Shown here: piece by piece, positions 24,482 to 61,356 of the stretch | Layout of the letters: each line of letters starts with the position of its first letter | Position numbering within the stretch: the first letter of the stretch is position 1 | NCBI GenBank assembly: GCA_044892525.1 | Contig: CM097885.1 | Span: 18,354,001 to 18,418,000, forward strand | From: Schmidtea polychroa | Lineage: Eukaryota | Length of the DNA stretch: 64,000 nucleotides | Direction: 5' to 3' | Made by a program: the position numbers and the translations under genes | The notes under the pieces: model-generated | Database searches by the model: none | What the model was told of the DNA's origin: nothing | The model's input: only the letters and a program-made list of their open reading frames with translations

Positions 24482-26238
24482 TTAATCATGGGACAATAAA
24501 TGCAGTGGAACTTTGAATTCGGAAATAATTGATTCTGGAATTAATTTTTCACGATTCATGTATAAGATTTTGTAGGTAGCTGCAATAGTTGATTCTGATA
24601 CACCCATAATATCTCGAATTTCTAAATATTATGATTTTAAAAACGTTAAATTTTTGAAAATATTACGTTTTTTTGAAATTTTCTCGTTCATAAGTAAGCC
24701 TGCCATATATATAGACGCTGATATCAAACTACTTGGTTTCTTCTCTGAAAATATTTTCGATGCATTTGCAATGCATATTGCTAGTTTTTCAAGAGATTTA
24801 TTTTTAATTTGCAACTGGTAACAGAATCGAGGAACTTGGTCAATAATATTTGATGACTCACAAGCCAATCCAAGAGCAACTCGCACTTTTTTTATCATTT
24901 TTTGAATATGCTTTAAATCTACTGCTGACACATCACAAATTTCTTAAAATTAAATATGATTAATAAATATTATATATAAAATTCTCTATAAAGATTTCTA
25001 TTTCATATAAGGTTAGTTACTCATAATTAATAAAGTATGTGAAAATAATGATTTGGCGACGCTTCATCACGCGACATTTCCTCAATTAAAAACTGAAATT
25101 TAATATTTTTACTGAAAAAAATAAGATTTTATATAAATTTAAAATTTGTTTTAAATTGTGTTTTCAAATTAATATTTTCGATAATTTCTATAATTTTAAG
25201 AAATTACTAAAAATTAAGTATAATTTTAATTAATTTGTTGAAAACGCAAATATAAAGGTTTATTTTTTGGTAATGATTAACCTTAATCCGTTTAGTTTCA
25301 AATTTGATTCCTTTTAGATTCAAATTATTCTACAAATAGCTTATATGAATGCGATTGAACTATTAAAATAATTTGAGATTAGCTATTTATATGTCAAATA
25401 ACGGAGTTTGATTTTTTTTATGTTATAAGCGAACAGTGATTGTTTTAATTCAATATTCTTTAATTATGTATGATAATAGTCATTATTTTTATTCCGAATG
25501 ATTTTTTATTAAACATTTTTTATGTTCTATTTTTCATTTTATATGTAAGTGCGATATATGCTATGTATTATATTTAGAAATATAAAGATCAGACCTTTTA
25601 CACTTCTTTCTATATTTCTATTTCGACAAACAAGAAATAAACAAGCACAAGATATTTCGTCTTTTTTCTTTCTTGTAAATCCTTTTATTTGAGTCAATTT
25701 TTTAACATATTCCATTGCAGCTAACTGAAATATATAATAACAGAATTAAAATAATTCATGTGAAAAATAACCTTTGTATTGTTATCTACTTTAATCCTCT
25801 CCCCAAAAGCCAATATGGAGGCCCTGCATTGTCTAATCATTCGGTCAGCTGGAGTGTCTACAACTCTATTTTTATATCGTTGTTCTCCATTTTCGTTTAA
25901 ATGTTTCACATCATATGACTGCTTAATAGTAATAGATGTTGCACTATTTGAACTGATGGCATTTTCAACTGCTCCAACTCGAGATTGATCTTCACCTGTA
26001 CCATCATTTGCAAATGATCGCCATTCACTTGAAAAATCAATGACCCTTCAAAAAAAGAGTTTATAATTATTTTGATTAATTTTATTACCTATCACCAACA
26101 ACCAATCCACAGGTTGAACAAATAAGATCTCCAGCTGAATAATCCTCTATTAAAACGGAATTAGGATGGTATTTACAAGCGAGTTTACTTAATAAAAATT
26201 TAAATTACTTAAAATTTTTTAATAATAACTAACATCAT
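24482..26238 (-). CDS. Transcription initiation factor IIB-like protein (divergent), 6 exons
   Basis: Exons 26238-26234, 26187-26089, 26045-25772, 25724-25595, 24942-24667, 24621-24482, all GT-AG with an open frame. Zn ribbon CKYHP...[24 protein letters not shown]-reader SEWRSFAND...SRVG, two cyclin repeats (CACLFLVCR...RSVKEIC; PRFCYQL...SASIYMA...[12 protein letters not shown]). Confidence 0.92.
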
Positions 26239-38130: not shown

Positions 38131-38885
38131 AAATCATAGGCTGCATAGCTCAATGAGAATAGCATAGTGGTTCAAATATACTGCAGTTCAAATCCAAACT
38201 AAATTTAGGTTTTTTCATAGAAAAAATATTGAAATTACTACAATATTGAAAATAGCATTAAAAATATAATATTCAAATTAATATAAATAATTGTCCCAAT
38301 ATCATCTTATCATTGAACTTGATTTTGGAAAATCGAACATTGTAGAAACATTTTTCCAAAGTTACTGGTTTCTAACAATAAATAATAAAATCCAAAATAA
38401 TTTATACAAACTTACCTTAAATTTAGAAGAAATTGGACAATACAAATAATTTAGTTTGTATTGCAAGAATTCTACTGGCTTTTTTGTATCCACTCGAACA
38501 TTGAGCAAGGTTTCCAGGGATAATGTCGATTCTTTAAATTTCCGTTTTCCGACTTCCTGAGCGACATCTGCATTTTTTCTCTTCAATACTCCTAAATTTA
38601 AAAAAAACTATTAAATGGAATATTTGCAAACGACAACAAACCTGTAATTTGATGATCCATTTGTAGTTGTAATATTTAATGAATTGAAACAGATATTTAT
38701 ACTAATTCCATTGTAAACAAAGTTTCAACTGACAGACAGACATGACCAAAACGTGATCAACCAGTCTATTTTATGCTAATTAATAAAGTCTGAAATGATT
38801 TATGGTATACAAAGAAATGAATTTTAAATGTTATAGGTTAATTAAGGTAATATTATCACAAAACATATATAATTACATGTATATT

Positions 38886-39122
38886 TTATATTTTATTACA
38901 ACAATAAATTTTTTGCCATTCTACGCGTAATGCATGAATTATTTCTCTTCTCTGTAGATTCACAAAACATGTACAACTATCATCCCCACAAGTATTCCGT
39001 ATATTATTTTTACAAAAATCACAATTTTCAACATTATCAGTATAGCACGTAATCGTAAAATGATCCATATGAATTAATTTCATGACAGTTATTCCAGTTA
39101 TTTCATAAATTTTGTAAAACAC
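38886..39122 (-). CDS. Small Cys/His-rich accessory ORF of the Maverick
   Basis: HMDH...C...CDFC...C...CTC pattern, directly downstream of the TBP-like gene; function unknown. Confidence 0.4.
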   Translation of the reverse strand: MFYKIYEITGITVMKLIHMDHFTITCYTDNVENCDFCKNNIRNTCGDDSCTCFVNLQRREIIHALRVEWQKIYCCNKI

Positions 39123-39245
39123 AACTTCATTATGGAATTTTTCAAATTCGGATAAAAATCTTCAATTTTATCAATCAAAATTTTTAGTATAGTGTTTCTA
39201 AACAAAAATCAACAAATTTTAAATAAAAAACAGTTACCATCATGT

Positions 39246-39739
39246 TCAGTCATTGTTGAATAAATATTCAAGCAAATCCTCGTTACTTATACTTGTAGAA
39301 ATTGTTAAAGATCCAATCAAATCCTTTACATCGTTTATAATTCCTTCAACAATAGTATGAAAATCTAAATTTTTAATACCTAGTACTATTATGTTACCAC
39401 TCGAAAAAATATTTACACACAGTGGGTTATATTTTGTATAACGCAGAGCGGGGAATAATTCAGGTTCATATATACGATCTCCATCTACTAACTTTGCTAA
39501 ATTATTCAAATTAATAGATTGTTCAACCTTGGTAGCTATAGTAAGACTTTGAACTTGAATATCTTATATTGTAAATTCTCGAATTCGATAGGTTTCTTAC
39601 AACCCATTATACGACATTTACCATTTTTGAAAAATATAATAGTATATTTTCTATTTTGTTGTGGTTTACACTTGGGGAAATTCATCATACGAAAAGTTTC
39701 CAAAGACACATGACCCCTATAATTAATATTTGTCAACAT
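39246..39739 (-). pseudogene. TATA-binding-protein-like gene (frameshifted) inside the Maverick
   Basis: Two TBP-like repeats: TIIFFKNGKCRIMGCK and INLNNLA...YEPELFPALRY...VNIFSSGNIIVLGIK (TBP consensus YEPELFPGLIY...LLIFVSGKVVLTGAK). Frameshift near 39560. Confidence 0.85.
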
Positions 39740-39849
39740 ATCTAATGAATATTTATAAAAATCGAGTATATATATATTATAATAGCATAATTAAAACATT
39801 TTATCCTTTACGATATAAACAATATCAATTTTTAAATATACATATTAAA

Positions 39850-40452
39850 ATGGAACTAAGAAATGATGCTGTTTATTAAATAGTCGGACCAAGTGGTAGT
39901 GGAAAAACTTTGTTTGTTTGCAAATTACTAAAATCACATTTATTCAAATCAAAATTTAACAAAATTTATTGGCATAGAGGTGCTGATGAAGAACACGGAT
40001 TAACTCACGATAATTTCTGTAAATTAAAAAATATGAAAATAGTAAAGCGATTTGATAAAAAGTGGTATAGTAGACCAAAGAAGGGAGATGTCATAATTAT
40101 TGATGATTTGTATAAAGAAGCTAATAAAGAAAAGAATTTCAATAATTTATTTACCAAAATCAGTAGACACGTGGGTGTAACGGTTATTTTTAAAACTCAA
40201 AATTTATTTCTTCAGGGCGGTGCACATAGAGCTCGTAATTTAAATGTTCAATATTTCGTTGTTTTTAAAAACCCTAGAGATGCAACAGTTATTAATTTTC
40301 TTGCAAAACATAATCGTAATTTTCTGATAAATGCTACAAAACAACCTCATGGATATATATTTCTTGATTTCACTCAACAGTGTCCTGATGATTTACGAGT
40401 GAGAACCGATATTTTCAATAAAGAATGGTCAATGGTTTATAAACAAAGTTGA
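39850..40452 (+). pseudogene. A32/FtsK-like packaging ATPase
   Basis: Walker A GPSGSGKT, Walker B IIIDDL, SRH and QNLF...RNLNVQY..VFKNPRD motifs; premature TAA at 39877. Confidence 0.9.
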
Positions 40453-40579
40453 AACCATGTTTAACTGATTATGTTTTTGAGAGCGAGAGTTAAAAATTTT
40501 GGAAAAGGTACTGAAAAAGAAAAAGTTAAAGTTCCACCAAAAACGAGTTACACATATTTGTTACAGAAAATTTCCATCA

Positions 40580-40990
40580 ATGAATTTCATCTCAAAAAAT
40601 CCAATACCTAAACCAATCAAAAACCTTAAACAAGTAAAAACAGTAAAAAATCATCGTAGTTTTCCGTTTTTTAATGCATTGTTAAAGGCACCGAGCATGA
40701 AAAGAATGACTATTTTACACTAATTTCCTAATATCGTTTTTGGTGATTTACTTGATATTATACTCAAAATAGTCAAAGGCAAGACTATAATTAGCAAATC
40801 TGACAAAATTATTTTAAACAAGTACCAGAAACCTCTTTTGATGCTAGTAAATAATAAAAATCGCAAACAAATGAGAAAAATTATATATAAACAACAAGGA
40901 GGGTTTCTTGCTGCATTAATAGCATTGGCATTATCATTATTAGTGGCATTATCATTATTAGGTCTATTAAAATCATCATAAACAATAGGT
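40580..40990 (+). pseudogene. pX-like core protein remnant
   Basis: Basic ORF pieces ending KQQGGFLAALIALALSLL, resembling the adenain-cleaved GGFLPAL motif of adenovirus pX; frameshifted. Confidence 0.55.
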
Positions 40991-41042
40991 GCTAATCCTT
41001 CATTACCTAATTTAAAATTTGATTTTAAATATTCATGTTGTA

Positions 41043-42060
41043 ATGGAGAAGATATGGACGAACCCAAAAGACGAAGCAGGTTTTGGTGGAGTCGAAAAGT
41101 TAAAGAAAAGAGTTCTGAATTCGAAGATGGAAACCCAGAATTGGTTATCAAGTCAGCTCGCATACAGTTTGAACAAGCCGATGCTGAAAAGATTTCCAAC
41201 AAGACCATATAAAACATTTGGTATTGATGATTCATGGCAAATGGATTTGATGGAAATGATAACATATTCAAAGATTAATAAAGGATACAGGATATTTTGA
41301 CATGCATTGATGTTTACAGTCGTTTTGCTCGAGCAATTCCTACCAAGGCAAAGTCTGCCGAAGAAATATCCAAAGCAATTAAACTCATGTTTAGAGATGG
41401 ATATCCAGAAAACTTACAAACAAATTTGGGTAAAATATTTGTAAAAATTCATTATTTTTCTTTTGGATAGGAATTTTACAACTGTAAAATGAAACAAATC
41501 CTGGATAAACTCAAATCAATCATTACTCTGTGCATTCTCAATTCAAAGCCGATCATGTTGAAATATTTAATCGAAAATTGAGAGATAAGCTGAAAAAAAT
41601 GTTTGTGCATCAAGGTAATAAGACATGGATAAATGCTTTGCCTAAAATTATATATGGTTATAATCATTCATCGCATCAAAGTTTGAATGATTTACAGTTT
41701 TCGAAAATGGCTGAAAAAATTAAAAAACTAAAATATAAAATCGGTTATCATGTTAGAATTAGTAGAATTAATGCATCTCCATTCATAAACATCTTTCATA
41801 CAAACTGAAGTGATGAAGTCTTTGTAATCTCGAAAAACAATACTAAACAATATCCAGTAATATATGTCATTAAAGACTGATCAAAATATTGTACAAGGGA
41901 AATTTTATGAACAAGAATTCCAAGTCATTCCTTCAGCAAAAGTTTTTAGAATTCAAAAAATATTGAAAACTACAAAGAATGGTGAGGATAAACAATACTA
42001 TGTCAAATGCCATAGATATCAAAACCCGACATGGATATGAGCAAAAGATTTAGTAAAGTA
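41043..42060 (+). pseudogene. Retroviral-like (c-integrase) with C-terminal chromodomain
   Basis: WQMDLMEM...CIDVYSRFARAIP...LQTNLGK/EFYN...VEIFNRKLRDKL...YNHSSH...QYYVK; several frameshifts and stops. Confidence 0.9.
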
Positions 42061-43050
42061 AATTTTTATACTCTTTTACCGAGTAATAGTTGTCCTCTTA
42101 TTCATCCAGATAATGAAGCAAGTAAATTTATGGTAGAACTACAAAATCCAATTTATTTACATGGTGAGTGGGAAGCGGCTTTATTGGATTTCACATTTGT
42201 GTACAAGACATTTCCATTCTACAGTAAATCCAGAATCGAATACAAAAAGAAGGAAACAGTTACAAAATATAAAAATTTGGTAATTGATAACGTAAATGAT
42301 TTTATTGATATATCAAATCCTTACGATCGAGATGTTACAATGTACATTGATCGAGATTTTCTTTAATTTAACTGTCATCATACTCCATTTCATGTATCAT
42401 TTTAATATTTGGCGAATGCAAAACGATTCGAAATAAAGACATTGAGATAAAGAGCGATACAGATATATTGAAGATACGGAATCCTGGATTTACCAAGGTT
42501 GGTGCGACTACAGAACCAATTAGGCTAACAGTACAGTTTCCGTTTGATATATCTAATACAGTTACATTTAATGACAATTTATAGAACCGAACTCGATGAA
42601 TTGCAAACATATTTAATTCAAAATTGTATATATATTTTCAAATCTCTAGAACTTCAAGAAAATAAATATTTCAGATTCTCTTTGAATAATGACATTTCTG
42701 AAATTAGCTTTGACAAAAACCTGATAAAAACATTATGATTACCTAAAGCAAAATATCAACAAGACGATAAAATTAATGAAGGATCGAGTATTTAAACTTA
42801 ATCATCAAATGTTCATCTATACTAATATTATTGAACCCATAATTGTTGGTGATTCCGCGGTTCTTCTATTGAAATCTATTTGGATTGAGAAACATGAGCA
42901 AGATGATGTTGTACAAATAATAATGGAAAATCCTATGTATTTACAAGTTTCAACCTCGTGTATAAACAATATAGAAACGATAATTCTGGTAAATTAATCG
43001 ATTTTGCACAAGATTCAAAAACTCATTTGACGATACATTTTCGTAAAGTC
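42061..43050 (+). pseudogene. Minor capsid (penton-like) protein
   Basis: FYTLLPSNSC...PDN..SKF.VELQNPIYLHGEWEAAL at the N-terminus and MFIYTNIIEPIIVGD...LLKSI...PMYLQV at the C-terminus; frameshifted. Confidence 0.75.
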
Positions 43051-43051
43051 G

Positions 43052-43423
43052 ATGCCTAATTCCGATATCATTAGTATGTATAGTGGTAGCCAAGCTGGTG
43101 GTGAATTACCACATTTTATTGGTAAACAATATGGATCTGGTTGGTTGCGGACGATTGGTAGATTTGCACTCCCGATTCTTAAACGTATAGGTATTTTTGG
43201 TATGAAAACTGCTAAAGATGTCATTATGAATGATCAAAAGATATTACCATCTCTGAAAACTAATGCTTTATCCGAACTAGGAAAAGTTTTACCGGGTGTT
43301 GCGGGTATGTTTCAAAAAGAAGAAAAAACAGAACCACCAGCAAATTTTCCAAAACGTAAAAAACACAGGTCATCATATATAAACAAACGGATGAGAGGAC
43401 ATGGAACTATATTTGAAAAATGA
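43052..43423 (+). CDS. Maverick conserved QxGxG/amphipathic-helix protein (probable virion core or membrane-active protein)
   Basis: Intact 123-aa ORF: QAGG.LPHFIG.QYGSGWLRTIGRFALPILK with a basic C-terminus; lies between penton and hexon and overlaps the hexon start (ATGA). Confidence 0.7.
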   Translation: MPNSDIISMYSGSQAGGELPHFIGKQYGSGWLRTIGRFALPILKRIGIFGMKTAKDVIMNDQKILPSLKTNALSELGKVLPGVAGMFQKEEKTEPPANFPKRKKHRSSYINKRMRGHGTIFEK

Positions 43424-44355
43424 TTTGTGGTAAATCTGAATTGTGTATATTTGCTCGACCATCGCCTCAAGCTGTTATCGAATATGGAGAATTCGAAGAA
43501 GTTTTTCCAATGAATTCTATTACAGATAGTAGGAATGATATGGAATTTTACATCAATGGTTCTCAAACTGAATATTTAGATTTGAACGATACTTTATTGA
43601 CTGTTCAGATCAAGGTTGTAGATAAAGATAAAAAGGCTTTGGGTGATCTTGATGCTACGATACCTAATAATTTCTTGTTTCATACGCTTTTTAAAGATGC
43701 TATTCTTGGATTTAATAATATCAAGATTGAAGGTGGCAACAATACATATATTCACAAGGCGATAATAGAAACTATTTTAAATTATAATACCGATACTAAA
43801 AATACATGTCTTACTCTTATGGGCTATGCGGCAACTGATGACGAAAGAAAAAAGTGGAATAAAGGTTCAAAGATTTTTACCATTATAGACTTTCTAGATC
43901 AACAAAAATATTTACTTCCAGGAGTCAATGTGCACATTAGGTTGAAAAGAACCGATTCTTCATTATCACTAACTAGTGCTAATGGTCAACCAATATGTTA
44001 ATTAGTTAATATGGATCATACAGTGCTTCAAGCTCAATTTTCAAAAACTTTGGTGTTACATCCTTGTCATTATCTAAAAATACTGATTATAGAGAAACAT
44101 ATAATCAAAATTTTGATAATGATAATTACTGTGTTACATATATGCAAAGTATTGTGAGATGGGTTATTTATGGGTTATTTAGATAAAAATTTGAATTGTG
44201 GAATTGTGATTTGAATCAGAGTTAATTATCTCATAATGGAAATTTACGATTAGATATAAAGTTTGCAAAAGCTATTGCAGAAGCTGTGCATGTTATAATA
44301 TATGGAGTATTTGAAAATGAGGTACAAATTACTGCAAATAGACCTGCTTGTATAG
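43420..44355 (+). pseudogene. Major capsid protein (hexon-like), internally deleted
   Basis: KSELCIF..P..Q..IE.G...E.FP...MEFYI.G....YLDLNDTLL at the N-terminus; GNLRLDIKFAKAI...VIIYGVFENEVQI at the C-terminus. Confidence 0.85.
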
Positions 44356-44389
44356 GTATAAATGCGTTTGGTAATATTAAAAATTTGTC

Positions 44390-44774
44390 ATGGAGTAAGT
44401 TCTTCGTGTATTATTTAATTTATTGATGTAGTTCTATACAGGTCAATCGAATTGGAAAACAGTTTTTAGGAAATGAGTTTGTTGGAGTATATCCATTGGA
44501 TAAAATACCATATTTACGTAATAATCAAGCCATAATCGTCAATACCCATTCATCACATCTTGATGGTGAACATTGGATTGGAATCTATCTAAAACCCGAT
44601 AGGATATATGTATTCGATCCTACGTGATTCTATTATCCTGCTTTATTGGTATCAAAATTGCAAACAATGGGTAAACTTATTGTATATAATAAAACAATGT
44701 TTCAAAATCCAATGACTCAAACATGTGGTCAGCACTGTTTAATATGGTTGATGTATAAAAAATTTGATTTATAA
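44390..44774 (+). pseudogene. Adenain-like cysteine protease (one intron, one premature stop)
   Basis: ATG GA|37-nt GTAAGT..TAG intron|T TCT..., then FVGVYPLDKIP...IVNT...GEHW...FDP...Q...TCGQHC catalytic motifs; in-frame TGA near 44625. Confidence 0.9.
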
Positions 44775-45247
44775 TAAATGTTTCTGGTTTTATTTTATTG
44801 TTTAATCTATTTTATTGATTTTTAAATTTATATGTTGTTGATTGTTTGATTTTTAAAATCACAATCATTTATAAACATTGACATTGGTATTTTTGTCACA
44901 ATTTATTTTCAAATGGATTCAAACAATTCAAAAGTTGTCGATGGTATTTTAAATTTTATATAGATATTTACTTTATTATTTTAAATCTTTTTATCGGAGA
45001 TTGGCTCCATATCACGGAAAATGAAGATTTCCCGGATATTTCCAGAACTTTTGAAAATGGTAAATTATTTTAATTTTATATAATTTTTAAACATCCATAT
45101 TTTAGATGTAATTAATGAAGAAATAAATTATGTCTTCGATGGATTAATTATGGAAGCCGAAGATGTTCATGAAAAATATTGGTGTTTTTTATTTTATATG
45201 TTAGTAATAGTAGTAATAATATTAATGATTTTTATAATAATAATTTC

Positions 45248-46764: not shown

Positions 46765-51039
<4,275 letters not shown>

Positions 51040-51172: not shown

Positions 51173-54014
51173 CAGGCATGAGCAACATACGGCCCGCGGG
51201 CCTCTTTTGACCGGCCCCCAGTGTTCATTGATCCACACCATATAACCAGGCCCTTGATAAGCTTTCAGGAATGTATGCAGTTGACGTTAGAGCTACACCA
51301 TTAGTACAAATACGCATTTAATATAAGCGTGGTGGTGCAGCAGTAAACTTTTTAATTATGACATTTTCCTTATAGATTAGCATAAACATGAAAACATCTT
51401 TTGTCTATGAACAAGATTCAGTAATATAAAATCTCATAAGCGAAGACCGAATTTTATTGCAAAATATTTATAAATCTTAAACTATAAATTGTAAAAGAAA
51501 TTTTCTATCGATAAAGTTTGTAATTCTCATCATTTATCAAAAATGATATAGGTTTATAAATGTAGTAATAGATGAAATAAGCTAATTAAGGATTTCAGTA
51601 TTTGTTTTTGGTTTATCTAATTTAATATTATTCCTTCTCGTTTTAATAATTACTTTTAAAAGATTTGTTTATTTTATCAAATTATTTTCATTTGAAATTT
51701 ACAATTTTTAAATAAAAATGCAAGTTGAATATTTATTTATTTTTCATTGTGTTCATATAAATCAGGCATGGGCAACATTCCACTGATATTTCCAATAATT
51801 CTGATGAACCACAGTTGAGGATGAGCACTATTACAAAAAAACGAAAAGTTGACAGTGAACACCGAGTATTTAATGATAAGTGGACATCGGATTATCTGTT
51901 TGTAGAATCAAACAATATGCTCGTTTGTCTTGTTTGCTCGCAATCAATTTCCGTTAAAAAGGAATTTAATGTAAGACGACATTACCAGACTCAGCATGCA
52001 GAAAAGTTCGATCAGATCCAGGGACAATTAAAGAAAGATAGGATCGAATCTCTCCGAAAAGCACTTCTAGGGCAACAGACATTCTTTATCAAAGTTAATA
52101 AAGAGGTTGAGTGTGTTGTGAAGGCGAGTTTCATGATAAGTGAGATAATTGCCAAGAAACTGAAACCGTTTTCTGATGGGGAGTTTGTCAAAGAATGCAT
52201 TGATGCTGCTGTGGATTGTATCTGTCCCGAAAAAAATCAACTTTTCTCGAATATCAGCCTTTCTCGATTTACAATCGTAAGACGAATTGATGATATTGCA
52301 AAAAACATTGAAACAATCTTGAAAGAAAAAGCTGAACTATTTCAAGCATATTCAATATGCCTTGATGAAAGCACGGATATGACAGACACCGCGCAGTTAG
52401 CAATTTTTGTGCGTGGGGTTGATTAGGACTTCCACGTTACGGAAGAACTGTTGAAATTAGCGAGCATGAAAGGGACTACAACTGGAGAAGATGTTTTTGA
52501 TGAAATCAAAACTGCATTGGCAGAAAACGGGCTTTTTCTTCCAAAGCTAACAGGAATAACGACAGACGGAGCTCCGGCAACGGTTGGAATAAAAAATGGA
52601 GTAGTTGGTTTATTGAAGGCGGAGCTAGTTAAAATGAAAGGAAGTGAGCAATTAATTGCATCACATTGCATAATCCACCAAGAGAATTTATGTGTAAAAG
52701 AACTAAAGATGGACCATGTGATGACAGTTGTTGTGAAAACAGTGAATTTCATAAGATCACGTGGATTGAATCATCGACAATTCAAAGAGTTTCTCACTAG
52801 CATTGAGACAGAATACTCGGATGTAATTTACTTTAGCGAAGTTCGCTGGCTGAGCAGAGGAAAAGTATTGCATCGCTTTTATTGCCTTCGTGAAGAAATT
52901 AAACTTTTTATGGAGATGAAGTCGAAACCAATTCCGGAGTTATCCGATGCAAATTGGCTACTTGACTTGGCCTTTTTGGTTGACATCACAACGCATCTGA
53001 ATGATCTAAACACGAAGTTACAAGGCTGGGATCAACTGATAAATAATCTTTACGATCATATCAAAGGATTTCAGACAAAGCTAAAACTATGGGAGAATCA
53101 ATTATCAAAGGACATTACGGTACATTTTCCAAATCTAACTGATTGCAAAAATGTTGCAAATTTAGCTAACACGAAGAAATTTAATGAACACATAATTGCA
53201 TTGAAAACACAGTTTTCTTCAAGATTTGCTGATTTTGCCGAACATGAAAATGATTTCAAACTATTTTCTGAACCATTCAGTGTTAATGTTGAGACAGCAC
53301 CAGAATCAAGGCAAATGGAGCTTATTGAATTGCAGTGTAATGGCAATCTGGAAAGAAAGTTTCGTGACGTCTCTTTGATTCAATTCTACAAACTCTACAT
53401 TTCTCAGAAAGCGTTTCCATCAATCCGATATCATTCGCTGAAAATGGTCTCACTTTTCCCCAGCACTTACATCTGTGAACAATTCTTTTCTAAGATGAAA
53501 CAAACAAAGTGCAAAAACAGATGTCGGCTCACTGATGATAACTTGTCAAACGAATTACGAGTAGCAACATCAACTATCAAGGCAAATATTTCAGATTTAT
53601 GTTGTGATAAGAAGTGTCAAATGTCACACAGACCAAAACCAGAACAAGATTGATATTGATATGTTGGGTATATTTGAGTAGTATATGCAAACTTGAGAAG
53701 CATAAAAAATATAAATTCGAACAATCCAGAGTTTGTGCGATTAAATAAACTATAAATATGGGATTATTAAAGTTAAATTTGGGTATTTTCATAGTTTGTA
53801 TATTTTGCCTTCCAATAACAACTAGTATATAGTATATAATATATAATGTATAATATATAATATAAGCCTAATCAATTAAATTTAAATGATCTTTGCTATT
53901 AAAAAGATATATTATTGGAATATATATTAATAAATTCGTGCTAAATACATCCGGCCCCCGAAACATTTTCAAAGACTGAACTGGCCCCTAACAAAACCAA
54001 GTTGCTCATGCCTG
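51173..54014 (+). mobile_element. hAT (SPIN/Buster/Charlie-type) transposon
   Basis: TIR CAGGCATGAGCAAC / GTTGCTCATGCCTG; perfect TSD ATCTAACA. Confidence 0.95.
51821..53653 (+). pseudogene. hAT transposase with a single in-frame stop
   Basis: ORFs 51815-52426 and 52451-53653 are in the same frame, separated by TAG at 52424. Motifs DESTD, TTDGAP, HCIIHQE, VRWLSRG, STYICEQ.FS.M. Confidence 0.93.
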
Positions 54015-54252
54015 ATCTAACAAATTCATACTTTCCATTTATCTACCCTAATGTACCATAATAAATAAAAAATTAATTAAAAATTTAAAAAAAGATAGTA
54101 AAATTCTTAGGTCCTGTTCGCTTCGCTTCTCCAACCCCATTAGATCATGGGGTTAATAATAATTTTTATTTAAAATATAATTTTTTGGGGATACATCAGG
54201 CAATCGACTTATTGTTTTTACGGCCCATTCTCTTTTCTTGCACACTCTAGGT

Positions 54253-56710
54253 CAGTGGTGCCCAACCTTTTTATCAAGTGGGCAACTATTTAAATGAAAA
54301 AGTCTTTGCGGGCACATTTTTGAAAAATTAGTTAATAGAAAAATGATCTTATAACAATCTTTTTATTAGGAAACATGCATTTGTATTAAAAATTTAAAAT
54401 AATAAAAATAATAATGTGAAACAAAACAAACAAATTTATTTATAACATCATTTTAATGCGGCTTTTGAATTTGAGTCTGGCTAACAAGTTGATCAATATC
54501 AGGATTGATTTTTGAATTTGATAATAGAATGAGGTTTTCCAAGTGAGCATCAGTGAGTGAACATCTGAATTTGCTTTTTATGTAGTTCATTGAAGAAAAT
54601 GTCTTCTCACAAATGTAAGTTGATCCAAATTTGACCACAAACCGGAGTGCCATGTTGTTAAGTTCAGGATAGTTATTTTTTGGAACAAGCTTCCAGAATG
54701 CTTTTAAGTCGGGTGAAATAGGTGATTCACAAAGCTCTTGAAACTTTCTCTTTAATCCTGTGTGGTTTTGAATGTCAGTAATTTCCATCTGTATTTTTGG
54801 AGAATACTTGCTGATTTCACTTTCTGATATAGAGAATGGATTAATGAACAATAAAATGTTATCCTTCTCTGCCTCAAAGTCAGAAAATCGAGAAGAAAAT
54901 GAATGAGACAAATTCATAATGGCAAGTTTGTATTTTTCATAGTCCAAGTTGACAGTGATTGAACTTTCAAGTTGAAATTTCTGAAGCGTGGGGAAAAGAT
55001 CCAGATTTCCTTGAGAAAGACTGTTATAAAACAGTTTTAATTTTGCCTTAAATGCATTGATTTGATTGAATAGTGTTGGGAACAAACTATTTTCACCTTG
55101 CAATCCTGTGTTCAAGATGTTCAGGTAATTTGTGACATCAACAAGAAAAGCCAATTCACTCAACCAGGAATTGTTTTTCAAAAGATCACACACGGTAGGC
55201 AACTCTTTTTTTTCTTCCAAAAATTGCAGTACTTGGGTCCTTAACTGGAAAAATCTTGACAGCATTTTTCCCTTTGACAACCAGCGAACAGAGCAATGGA
55301 GCAAAAGTTCACCACAATCATCAGTTTCCTCTTCAAACAGGGATCGGAACTCTCTTCTATTTAGAGATCGTGCTCTAATCTTGTTAATACAGTGCACAGC
55401 TGTGTCAATAACATGCTTGAATTCCATATCCTTTGAGCAAAGAACTTCTTGATGAATAATGCAATGGTACTTAAAAAGTTTTCTTTTTAGATATTTTTCT
55501 AGAAGGGAAACACAACCGTTGTTTTTTCCAACTATTGCAGGAGCTCCATCTGTGCAGATACTTTCCAGTTGATTCCAGTTGAGCTTATACTCGTTGATGC
55601 TTGAATTTTCCACACAATCTTTCAGTGCTTCAAAGATATCGGCTCCAGTTGTTGTGGTTTTCAGTTGACAAAGGCCAAGAAGTTCCTGAACAACATCGAA
55701 GTTTTCATTGACACATCTTATATAAACCAGTAATTGAGCACTGTCAGTTGCATCACAGCTTTCATCAATTGCAATTGAAAAGTATTTTGAAAGTGAAGCA
55801 GCAACAATAATTTGTTTTGAGACATCATTGGCCATTTCTTCAATTCTCCGAGTAACTGTATTTCTTGAAAGTGCTATGTTTTTGGACAGCAATTTGTTTT
55901 TTGGGTCACCTGAGTTTTCAGCAAAAATAGAAATTGCCTCTTTTACCATTTCACCATCTGAATAACTTTTTTTTAATCTGGCAAGCAGCAGGGAAATTTG
56001 AAAGGAAGCTTTTGTCATACCGTGCATTTCTTCTTGTCTTTTGGTAAAAAATGTTTGCTGAACTGCAAGTTTCGATTTTCTCTTTGAAATAAAGTCAGTT
56101 CTGTCTGCAGATCCAATTGGGTATTTAATTTTGAATTCTGAATGCATCTGATTAAAATGACGTTCCACATTGTATTTTTTATAGACTGCAACTGTGTCAT
56201 TACAAATCAGACAAATTGGCCTTGATGATTGTGAATGTGTGAACAAAAATTGTTCTTCCCAGTTATTTCTTAACACTTGTTGCGCAGATTTTTCATCTTC
56301 ACGTTTTCTTTTTCGAGACATCCCTTTGCTGAGAGACATTTTTGTAAAAACAAAAATTATTTTTTTTATTTGGATAAATTGTTGTCCACACTGAGAGATT
56401 GTTTTTGGTTGACTGATTTAAATAGAGTTTTTTAACTAACGATGTAACGATATTTGAGTTAATTAATTTTAATTTAAAGTAGGAAAAAATTTAATTTTCT
56501 TGGAATTCCCATTTAATAATTAATTGTTGGGATTGATTAATTTTAATTTCGAAAATTAAAAATGCGCTTGTAATTCTCATTGAAACATTATACATCTTAA
56601 TGTTAAAAATTGATATTTTCTTTAACCGTATTTAGAAAAACACCCACGGGCATTTGAAAAAGTCTCCACGGGCACTTTTTTGCCCGCGGGCACTAGGTTG
56701 AGCACCACTG
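54253..56710 (-). mobile_element. hAT (SPIN/Buster-type) transposon, apparently complete
   Basis: TIR CAGTGGTGCCCAACCT / AGGTTGAGCACCACTG; perfect TSD CTCTAGGT. Confidence 0.95.
54453..56339 (-). CDS. Intact hAT transposase, 628 aa
   Basis: N-terminal CLIC...H...H zinc finger, DESCD, CTDGAP, HCIIHQE, VRWLSKG, FGSTYICEKTFS; no stops. Confidence 0.95.
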   Translation of the reverse strand: MSLSKGMSRKRKREDEKSAQQVLRNNWEEQFLFTHSQSSRPICLICNDTVAVYKKYNVERHFNQMHSEFKIKYPIGSADRTDFISKRKSKLAVQQTFFTKRQEEMHGMTKASFQISLLLARLKKSYSDGEMVKEAISIFAENSGDPKNKLLSKNIALSRNTVTRRIEEMANDVSKQIIVAASLSKYFSIAIDESCDATDSAQLLVYIRCVNENFDVVQELLGLCQLKTTTTGADIFEALKDCVENSSINEYKLNWNQLESICTDGAPAIVGKNNGCVSLLEKYLKRKLFKYHCIIHQEVLCSKDMEFKHVIDTAVHCINKIRARSLNRREFRSLFEEETDDCGELLLHCSVRWLSKGKMLSRFFQLRTQVLQFLEEKKELPTVCDLLKNNSWLSELAFLVDVTNYLNILNTGLQGENSLFPTLFNQINAFKAKLKLFYNSLSQGNLDLFPTLQKFQLESSITVNLDYEKYKLAIMNLSHSFSSRFSDFEAEKDNILLFINPFSISESEISKYSPKIQMEITDIQNHTGLKRKFQELCESPISPDLKAFWKLVPKNNYPELNNMALRFVVKFGSTYICEKTFSSMNYIKSKFRCSLTDAHLENLILLSNSKINPDIDQLVSQTQIQKPH

Positions 56711-59601: not shown

Positions 59602-61356
59602 GTACCTGCTGGCACAGACCTCCCTCCTGCCGAGGGAAAAATTATTTAGCTAAAACATTGTTTGGTTAATATGTTTAAGTAGTTCAACTAGTATTTTTAT
59701 GTAGGTCACGGAATTTTATGTTTTCCCTTGAAATTTTTATGTTTTTCATGTCAAAATTACTCAAATTTTAAATAGGTCAAGTTATATTTAAAAAAATATT
59801 ACCCGCAGGCACAGTATATAAAATAAGTAGGTCACACATATATATACAGTATATACACTAAAACCTCGACTTGCGTCGTTAATTGGGCCCCAAGAAAGAC
59901 GACGCAAATCGAAATTAATTTTTCCACCTAAAAATGTATTTTGTTAATTAGTATTAATTCAAAAGATTCCTTGGATTAAAACTTATTTTTATTTCAATCA
60001 TTATGTATATATGTAATACATAAACCAACATTAAATATAATACATAAATTTATTAAAATATTAAATAAAATATAAAATATAAATTCATTAAATAACAAAT
60101 AAAATAACATAAAAATTCATTAAATAAACAAAATATAAAATTCATTGCACAGAAAAAGTTTGTAACTTTCTTTTTTAATTCTAATTCGATGAACTTGACG
60201 ATTCTAAATCGATTACCGTTTCTGTAGGCTGGTTCTGGTTTGTTTCTCGTAACGTTACAGTTAAAAACTTCTGAATTTGTGCAGCTTTTTTATCCAGATA
60301 AATTTCTTTATAGCAATTGATAGCGTTATCAATAGTTCGCGTAACCGTTAAGCACCGAATTTCGCCAGGTTCATCATTGACAAAAATGTTCATTGCCTGT
60401 GAAAAACTTACTTAAACTATAATTATTTTTATTTTCATGCGGTAAATCTCATTTATTTTACATTGAAAATTTATTTAATATGGGAAATTTAAGCAACGCA
60501 AATCGAAATTTTAACGAGGCAACTCTGAAATAACAAAATCTTAAAAACAACGCAACCTCGAAAACGACGCAAATCGAGGTTTTAGTGTAGTTTTATTAAT
60601 AATAAATAAGTAGGTCACAGACACACACTCGTAAAAAACAACCCCCACTGGCACTATATATATATATATAAAATTTTCCTTAGATGTTGGAATAATGTTT
60701 AATTCCCAAGATTGAAGTCATTGAGACCATATTTTAAAATGAGATGCATGTCATACCAATTTAAATTATGAAAGACGACGGGTTGTAGTTTGAGAATTCT
60801 GTGAGAGTCATTACATTTATTACAGGCTGTACCAAGATATATACCTGAGAAATGATCATGATTTCTAACGGGTTTTAGGATACGCTTTTTACATAATTAA
60901 GAAGTTTGACATGATAAAAATGCTCGCTCCTCAGCAAAAGACAGAGTCGACATAGGTTTCTTGCCCTCAAGTTCATAATACGGTAGAGCACTTGTGACAG
61001 TATTTGCCACGACGTTTTGCAAAAATTCAAAGATACAGTCATCCTACGAAATTAAAATATGATTTTGAATTATGTATTTATTTATGTATATATAAACCAT
61101 TTTGGTGGATCTTTGTTTGACAATGAGCAAACGAGAATGTGTTTCTTTGACCTACTTATTTCATATACTGTGCCCGTGGGGACCACGTTCTAAAGATGAC
61201 TTGACCTATTTAAAATTTGAGTAATTATGACGTAAAATAGATAAAAATTCCGTGACATACATAAAAATACTAATTGACCCACTTAAAAATATGAAGCAAA
61301 ATTTTTTAGGTTTAATAATTTTTCCTCAGCAGGCGGGGATCTGCGCCAGCGTGCAC
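59602..61356. mobile_element. Element with ~230-bp imperfect inverted repeats
   Basis: 59602-59835 is the approximate reverse complement of 61148-61356; no clear TSD. Confidence 0.65.
59856..60587 (-). mobile_element. pogo/Tigger deletion derivative nested in the above
   Basis: TIR CACTAAAACCTCGACTTGCGTCGTT / AACGACGCAAATCGAGGTTTTAGTG with TA flanks; Tigger-like C-terminal peptide CYKEIYLDKKAAQIQ. Confidence 0.85.

Follow-up and report, generated by a model that had tools for sequence, protein, structure and literature searches.

Polintons encode capsids, but to our knowledge the animal elements have no described virion or programme of gene expression. Viral TATA-binding proteins (TBPs) serving late genes are already known, and we found no description of a Polinton TBP with a matching promoter box. 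In the available part of PMC7221094, the stirrup glutamates of TBP are reported to bind TFIIB and a basic N-lobe patch to bind TFIIA, TAF1, Brf and Mot1, and viral TBPs usually lose the stirrup glutamates (~40% conserved) and encode their own TFIIB; the same part makes no mention of Polintons. For vertebrate Polintons, the available part of PMC8097293 places TBP outside the eight core genes. A "TBP" label stands in the MELD-virus legend of Figure 5, without analysis in the available text of PMC8502044 and its preprint, and the same clade as the gene studied here is not implied; the available part of one supplement of PMC8502044 holds no TBP hit. Term searches for TBP or TATA found nothing in the available parts of PMC8097293, PMC10748475 and bioRxiv 10.64898/2026.06.19.733378. 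Overall, the literature searched contained no analysis of a Polinton TBP or of the ATAAAC box presented below, and figures, preprint supplements, subscription papers or Repbase reports could hold one. Planarian Polintons are silenced by piRNAs and de-repressed on differentiation (PMC8532177, available part). Here, we analyzed a TBP-like gene, TBPL, carried by a Polinton of Schmidtea polychroa.

TBPL and its Polinton family

The window (the whole 64,000-nt stretch of DNA that was analyzed) contains a truncated element, at ~38,285-44,800, in which the ATPase, integrase, capsid and protease genes survive as remnants; the polymerase and the terminal repeats are absent from this interval. The features of the element and the evidence for each are as follows:

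38,285-39,280, minus strand: left-arm genes downstream of TBPL (132-aa Cys-rich, 82-aa and 99-aa), decayed, and left limit of the element (similarity)
39,246-39,739, minus strand: TBPL, broken copy, open copies elsewhere being of 170 aa (PF00352 on both pieces, identity to an open copy, fold)
39,744-39,748, minus strand: TCATT initiator-like site of TBPL (sequence; TCATT enrichment in TBPL upstream windows)
39,767-39,778, minus strand: TA tract at the canonical TATA-box position for TBPL, ~31 nt before the initiator-like site (sequence)
39,814-39,821 (box listed at 39,815), plus strand: TATAAACA box, a candidate late core promoter lying 36 nt ahead of the ATPase start (sequence)
39,850-40,452, plus strand: A32-like packaging ATPase, decayed (Pfam Pox_A32; 83% to an open copy)
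40,439-40,444, plus strand: ATAAAC box within the ATPase 3' end, ahead of the 177-aa gene (sequence)
40,637-40,906, plus strand: gene of a conserved 177-aa basic protein, remnant (similarity to open copy)
40,978-40,983, plus strand: ATAAAC box ahead of the integrase (sequence)
41,043-42,058, plus strand: retroviral-type integrase, fragmented, with a chromodomain (an open copy matches Pfam rve and Chromo)
41,988-41,993, plus strand: ATAAAC box ahead of the putative minor capsid gene (sequence)
42,007-43,056, plus strand: 355-aa gene, putative minor capsid protein, decayed (nearest Atlas clusters are Preplasmiviricota proteins without Pfam)
42,962-42,967, plus strand: ATAAAC box ahead of the 122-aa gene (sequence)
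43,052-43,420, plus strand: conserved 122-aa gene (similarity to open copy)
43,379-43,384, plus strand: ATAAAC box ahead of the major capsid gene (sequence; 13/13 major capsid upstream windows)
43,420-44,354, plus strand: double jelly-roll major capsid protein, decayed and partly deleted (fold match of an open copy's model)
44,430-44,762, plus strand: adenain-like maturation protease (Pfam Peptidase_C5, E 7e-7 on an open copy)

None of the three left-arm genes had a Pfam match. The initial annotation had described TBPL as a compact, apparently intronless ORF with the two repeats of the TBP fold, divergent from the ATPase across a gap of ~110 bp and linked to Maverick genes. Both peptides quoted in it were found on the minus strand within 39,246-39,739, in two different frames. 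The window copy, from a start codon at 39,739 to a stop at 39,246, is a pseudogene with a frame change between ~39,580 and 39,545 and a short in-frame deletion in its first half. Its two pieces are 78% and 91% identical to an open copy; the C-terminal piece matches the Pfam TBP family (PF00352) at E 1.8e-11 and 44 bits (cut-off 22.9), and the N-terminal piece at E 0.005, under the cut-off. The fold is that of TBP, but its two repeats are unequal, the first being much shortened. The gap measures exactly 110 bp (39,740-39,849), because the ATPase starts at 39,850. The absence of introns holds as well, with one open 170-aa frame in 18 of the 19 other copies fetched, and the ATPase adjoins TBPL at all 19 of these loci.

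The host genome (G000), which is AT-rich and comprises 781 Mb with four large chromosomes, contains at least 150 close matches to TBPL (150 scored of 3,459 candidates), of which 149 are other copies, at 94% identity. A stop-free frame of at least 167 aa was counted by eye in 143 of these 149, a sample biased to intact genes because it consists of the best-scoring copies. The coding blocks of five longer copies are 98-99% identical, and one full copy of ~16 kb carries an inverted repeat of 1,210 nt (93% identical), has AGTAGT at its ends and shows a target duplication of 6 bp. In open copies, Pfam supports the ATPase, the integrase and the protease, and the 407-aa gene has the double jelly-roll capsid fold (best E 1.5e-16), its model matching the iridovirus, PBCV-1 and mavirus capsids. 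A sequence profile of this major capsid protein (MCP) gave no match in the PDB, and the fold search settled its identity. Across the other copies, the Polinton/Maverick gene set (pPolB, integrase, A32 ATPase, double jelly-roll MCP and protease) is complete, pPolB being assigned by similarity to relatives carrying PF03175. Further families in the same genome carry TBPL at 52-59% identity. When loci were picked by the capsid gene instead, TBPL was present at 18/20, and the two loci without it were also without the ATPase. The link with Maverick genes is thus borne out by the other copies and by the other Polinton families that carry TBPL.

Several observations concern neighboring or related sequences. 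A tiny conserved ORF, which starts with Met-Gly, has a Cys-Cys motif and lies just before the integrase (window ~40,985-41,045; homologs at L040, L053, L080 and L112), possibly encodes a myristoylated virion peptide. A separate Polinton polymerase fragment (60,619-61,040, minus strand, 59% identity) was observed 16 kb from the element. At 46,847-50,877 and 51,761-56,417 lie what we take to be a decayed Helitron-like Rep/helicase and two hAT-like transposase frames, one of which is open for 654 aa (54,453-56,417). A second abundant Polinton family of the same genome (L160-L167) is without a TBP, and a CATTTT-type motif was seen by eye ~15-20 nt before many of its genes.

A protein search recovered 107 relatives, all with PF00352 and at 33-63% identity, except one at 94%. 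Among the best 80 of 184 metagenome loci, another Polinton core gene was found at 38, and 38 of the 42 loci without a further core gene are shorter than 3.5 kb. Two TBPL lineages were distinguished: in one, the protein has ~150 aa and its first lobe is very short; in the other, it has 167-179 aa and occurs alongside a phospholipase A2 gene. The whole protein (145-180 aa) consists of the TBP core, and its gene neighbors differ between lineages. The dN/dS ratio was 0.13-0.35 in 22 pairs, 6 more pairs being saturated, and the TBPL and ATPase distances co-vary (rho 0.83 over 28 loci, some of them near-duplicates). Overall, TBPL is a real, old and lineage-wide gene of one Polinton lineage, under purifying selection. 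Scans of IMG/VR returned only one giant-virus TBP with TBPL and nothing with MCP and ATPase, and a look-up of TBPL in the Atlas gave TBP clusters only, with unreliable taxa. Cargo genes were also observed in related elements: a ubiquitin-conjugating enzyme (L042:225-719), a dual-specificity phosphatase (L048:4008-4316), a RING finger (L085:13315-13893) and a KilA-N gene (L092:7145-8002).

Fold, origin and surfaces of TBPL

The open TBPL copy matched PF00352 at 63 bits (cut-off 22.9), and its AlphaFold model, based on a 90-sequence alignment, had a pLDDT of 95. The TBP fold was confirmed by comparison of this model with human and yeast TBP (Z 13.2 and rmsd 2.8 for 150 aligned residues); the best-scoring structure other than a TBP reached Z 6.7, and all the top Foldseek matches were TBPs. 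Structural identity to cellular TBP was 24-26%. In BFVD, giant-virus TBPs matched the model with a best E of 5.5e-8.

TBPL had been read as a long-diverged TBP, with a recent retrocopy of a host TBP/TRF as the alternative. In a tree of 70 rows, 37 Polinton-type proteins, of which 21 were assigned from similarity alone and with no gene context, were split with 100/100 support from 33 archaeal, eukaryotic, host and other rows. The host has seven TBP-like paralogs of its own; TBPL did not group with them, and a joint clade with six was rejected (p-AU 0.024, the long-branch paralog L120 being left out of the group), which argues against a retrocopy. The best sequence matches of TBPL are archaeal TBPs, but the tree is unrooted and has long branches; the single giant-virus TBP in it falls with the cellular TBPs. 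Two further Polintons carry a TBP outside the TBPL clade. At L232 (2446-2976), a near-canonical TBP is head-to-head with the capsid gene, which suggests a separate capture. At L237 (4714-5828), a Polinton mis-binned in a bacterial MAG has adjacent TBP-like and TFIIB-like genes, no ATAAAC boxes and a TBP without the first stirrup glutamate (E186); this TBP and TFIIB look like an orthogonal pair. TBP capture in Polintons seems to have happened more than once (L232, and L237 with its own TFIIB).

Surface residues were given in yeast numbering, transferred via the plant-type TBP P0172, with DNA contacts as in Table 1 of PMC12529657 (available part). At the stirrup, the E186 equivalent is E in 86/90 sequences and D in 4/90, and the E188 equivalent is E in 90/90. 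The equivalents of N69, F116, F190, P191 and F207 are kept, so that three of the four intercalating phenylalanines (F116, F190 and F207) are present; F99 is replaced by Pro in 88/90 (34/37 in a second count). The DNA face is changed at V71 (Asn, 87/90), V122 (Arg, 88/90), T124 (Met, 90/90), N159 (Ser, 87/90), V161 (Thr/Ser, 89/90), V203 (Cys, 90/90) and L205 (Asn, 90/90). The N-lobe helix H2 is mostly deleted in lineage I, with a gap at K133 in 22/25 and at K138 in 23/25, and partly kept in lineage II; the TBPL model has no long helix between residues 52 and 64. Among the TBPL forms examined, none had an extra Pol II-binding N-terminal or C-terminal domain of the herpesvirus vTBP type.

No TFIIB-family protein was detected among 67 ORFs scanned (60 from TBPL elements), nor by tblastn with host TFIIB-like proteins, a search that a remote homolog could escape. 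The initial annotation had inferred that TBPL could give the virus its own basal transcription module, or be a decoy for TBP partners. The former was overstated: no TFIIB or RNA polymerase gene was found in the lineage, and TBPL would therefore be one specificity factor. The latter has become less likely, since what TBPL has lost is precisely the helix that binds regulators.

The host set of basal factors is unusually expanded, with an intronless TFIIB-like family in addition to the seven TBP paralogs. At L153-L159 (G000, C3 38-39 Mb and C1 23.8-24.2 Mb), we observed at least 13 near-identical, intronless, divergent TFIIB-like genes of ~301 aa in two clusters. We considered whether these multi-copy genes are element-borne and rejected it, an integrase fragment being near 1/7 loci only. 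The window itself contains a host TFIIB-like gene with introns (25,587-26,177, minus strand), whose exons encode a zinc ribbon and a B-reader. It is 38-70% similar to the intronless family and lies at a distance of 13 kb from the element, to which we found no link.

The ATAAAC box

Upstream sequences were searched in 100-nt windows before seven virion-block genes, with start codons picked by script and near-duplicates removed (from 118 to 88 windows). The top 6-mer was ATAAAC, present in 74/88 windows versus 8.9 expected, and in antisense in 1/88. In the de-duplicated windows, it preceded the ATPase in 26/26 and the MCP in 13/13; before de-duplication, 31/32 ATPase windows had the box, the one miss (L141) being removed as a near-duplicate. 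The protease windows had it in 3/4, ~70 nt upstream. We did not observe any enrichment of AATAAA before virion genes or of the canonical TATAWAWR before the ATPase (8 vs 5.0 expected, p 0.09). Genes not used for motif finding gave a graded picture: the box was found before 8/9 nuclease-like and 7/8 phospholipase genes, before 9/15 other lineage-II virion-block ORFs (missing in 6/15), and before 1/7 polymerase (starts uncertain), 2/8 SSB-like and 0/1 KilA-N genes, "nuclease-like" and "SSB-like" being labels that we presume, without Pfam support.

The windows upstream of TBPL itself (76, reduced to 56) had ATAAAC in 4/56 (Fisher 3e-21) and the canonical TATAWAWR in 26/56 versus 6.7 expected. TCATT was present in 35/56 versus 16.7 expected. 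In 25/56 windows, a TATA was paired with an initiator at a distance of 24-34 nt, versus 2/56 in reversed order; the patterns were chosen after data inspection. This TATA lies 33-59 nt before the ATG, a spacing similar to that of the box, which for the ATPase, the MCP and the 177-aa gene falls at 30-44 nt before the ATG in 32/46 cases and closer in one. CCAAT boxes before TBPL, frequent by eye, were not enriched (10 vs 8.8 expected). In many metagenome loci (e.g., L069, L070, L076 and L082), the word TGTTTTA was also observed upstream of TBPL (17/56 vs 2.6 expected).

Within coding sequence, the box motif also biases codon choice. Ile-Asn is written ATA AAC in 38/56 cases near starts versus 22/212 elsewhere, and a second comparison in coding sequence gave 21/24 versus 38/72, which points to a constraint at the DNA level. 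Taken together, these sequence data suggest an altered TATA box on virion-block genes with a herpesvirus-like late pattern. The earlier proposal that TBPL could redirect host Pol II to viral promoters gains independent support from the matching box.

We then compared loci with and without TBPL. In the second Polinton family of the same genome, we found neither a match to TBP nor a box at that distance. At -60 to -20, the box preceded 74/211 ORFs in 23 TBPL loci versus 7/377 in 38 TBP-negative loci, these being Polintons or PLVs of distant lineages after two duplicate contigs were dropped. In the fairest test, ten loci picked by the ATPase alone, it preceded 12/19 ORFs in the two loci with the TBPL clade and 1/50 in the other eight, which include L232 and L237, with TBPs outside the clade, and six partial contigs that may hide a TBP. 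The box is thus rare in elements without TBPL, although most of these controls come from distant lineages or are partial contigs. Since the co-occurrence of gene and box is at the clade level, there are few independent contrasts. At L229, the box is present although His and Trp replace Arg47 and Met49 in TBPL. These two residues are therefore not strictly needed, and a reading of the box C by Arg47 and Met49 alone, which we had considered, is weakened.

A proposed late-promoter factor and known systems

We propose that TBPL is probably a Polinton late-promoter specificity factor, an early product that recognizes the box and brings host TFIIB and Pol II to the late genes, "early" and "late" being assigned from gene type. 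Host TBP/TFIID would transcribe TBPL early from its ordinary TATA-Inr promoter. TBPL would then bind NATAAAC(A/G) in the minor groove and recruit host TFIIB via its stirrup, hence host Pol II, and the ATPase, integrase, capsid and accessory genes would be expressed. With H2 lost, TBPL may be poorly visible to TFIIA, TAF1, Brf and Mot1. We also lean, with some reserve, towards the full scheme, in which one lineage of animal Polintons runs an early-to-late cascade with a single altered-specificity TBP of 150-170 aa. This factor would recognize NATAAAC(A/G), work with host TFIIB and Pol II and evade control by TAF1, Mot1 and TFIIA.

The box could instead be a real core promoter read by host TBP or a paralog, TBPL serving as a decoy that sequesters TFIIB or damps host transcription. 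T most often precedes ATAAAC (48/77), giving a one-base variant of TATA, the host has seven TBP paralogs, and the TFIIB stirrup is the most conserved TBPL surface. We take the C(-25) TATA variant to read TATAAACG. Wild-type TBP has been crystallised on the C(-25) variant (title of PDB 1qn3), and host TBP may therefore tolerate the box. However, C, G or A starts the remaining 29/77 boxes, and the C of the box is invariant by definition while TATAWAWR is not enriched before the same genes. The box is also rare in Polintons without TBPL, including the second family of the same host, and a pure decoy needs no invariant re-tooled DNA face; we consider a host reader unlikely. A recruitment of TBPL to the box within a larger element-encoded complex, as for herpesvirus ORF24, or a box acting as initiator, would leave host TFIIB without a direct role as partner. 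KSHV ORF24, with a similar polar DNA face, needs viral partners (PMC12529657, available part), and several small conserved ORFs beside TBPL are unexplained. This is nevertheless quite improbable for a bare core with no extra domain, which keeps the acidic stirrup absent from ORF24 and whose neighbors vary between lineages, and the box distances, with their sharp lower limit near 30 nt, agree with a TATA position.

Two other readings would detach the box from TBPL. Forkhead proteins have the consensus RYAAAYA, which ATAAACA fits, and the related word TGTTTTA is enriched before TBPL; the box would then be a host forkhead-type upstream activator site, linked to TBPL by shared ancestry. With GTAAACA, the other common forkhead form, in 1/88 windows, a motif fixed in strand and position, and G following ATAAAC in 12/79 sites, we regard this as very improbable. 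Many boxes fall within the 3' portion of the gene ahead of them and one overlaps a stop codon, as for a 3'-end signal of the upstream gene or a coding by-product, with TBPL as unrelated cargo. This is hardly credible, since the box before the ATPase lies in a divergent gap with no co-oriented gene ahead (families A-D) and boxes occur in different reading frames, with a synonymous-codon bias.

If TBPL is a late-promoter factor, the gene and its box suggest how small integrated viruses may switch on late genes with the host polymerase. A defined box with a candidate reader allows a direct and cheap test of an autonomous viral cascade without helper virus, and the box helps to annotate gene starts in TBPL elements. 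As a naturally occurring TBP that keeps three phenylalanines, has a re-tooled DNA face and lacks the regulator helix, TBPL is informative for the TBP mechanism and could serve as an orthogonal part in transcription. It also deviates from the pattern of viral TBPs that drop the contact with host TFIIB and bring their own TFIIB (PMC7221094, available part).

With cellular TBP (PF00352; eukaryotic TBP/TRF and archaeal TBP), TBPL shares the two-lobed saddle, the YEPE(L/I)FP stirrup and F116, F190, F207 and N69. It differs by a core of ~150 aa with a shortened first lobe, H2 mostly deleted (lineage I), the loss of F99, seven polar or swapped DNA-face residues and a separate long branch. The elements share with Polintons/Mavericks/adintoviruses (Polintoviricetes) the core genes, a size of ~16 kb, 1.2-kb terminal repeats, AGTAGT ends and the 6-bp duplication. 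The Nucleocytoviricota TBPs and poxvirus VITF-3 are likewise virus-encoded proteins with the TBP fold; the former have also lost the N-lobe regulator signature, but they mostly pair with a viral TFIIB and ~40% keep the stirrup glutamate (PMC7221094, available part), whereas no TFIIB gene was found in the TBPL lineage.

By analogy, KSHV ORF24 would be the closest working counterpart of TBPL. ORF24, EBV BcRF1 and HCMV UL87 belong to nuclear DNA viruses without their own RNA polymerase and with an altered late-gene TATA box, as proposed here, and have polar substitutions at the V122, T124, V161 and L205 positions (PMC12529657 Table 1, available part); these mimics are weak structural matches to TBPL only (BcRF1 E 0.011). 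ORF24 keeps all four phenylalanines and TBPL three. ORF24 binds Pol II directly (PMC7498053, available part), has 752 aa, needs other viral factors and is without the acidic TFIIB stirrup, whereas TBPL is a bare core with the stirrup (PMC12529657, available part). If the proposed role is true, TBPL would be the smallest known viral late-transcription switch and, with its box, a natural orthogonal TBP-promoter pair.
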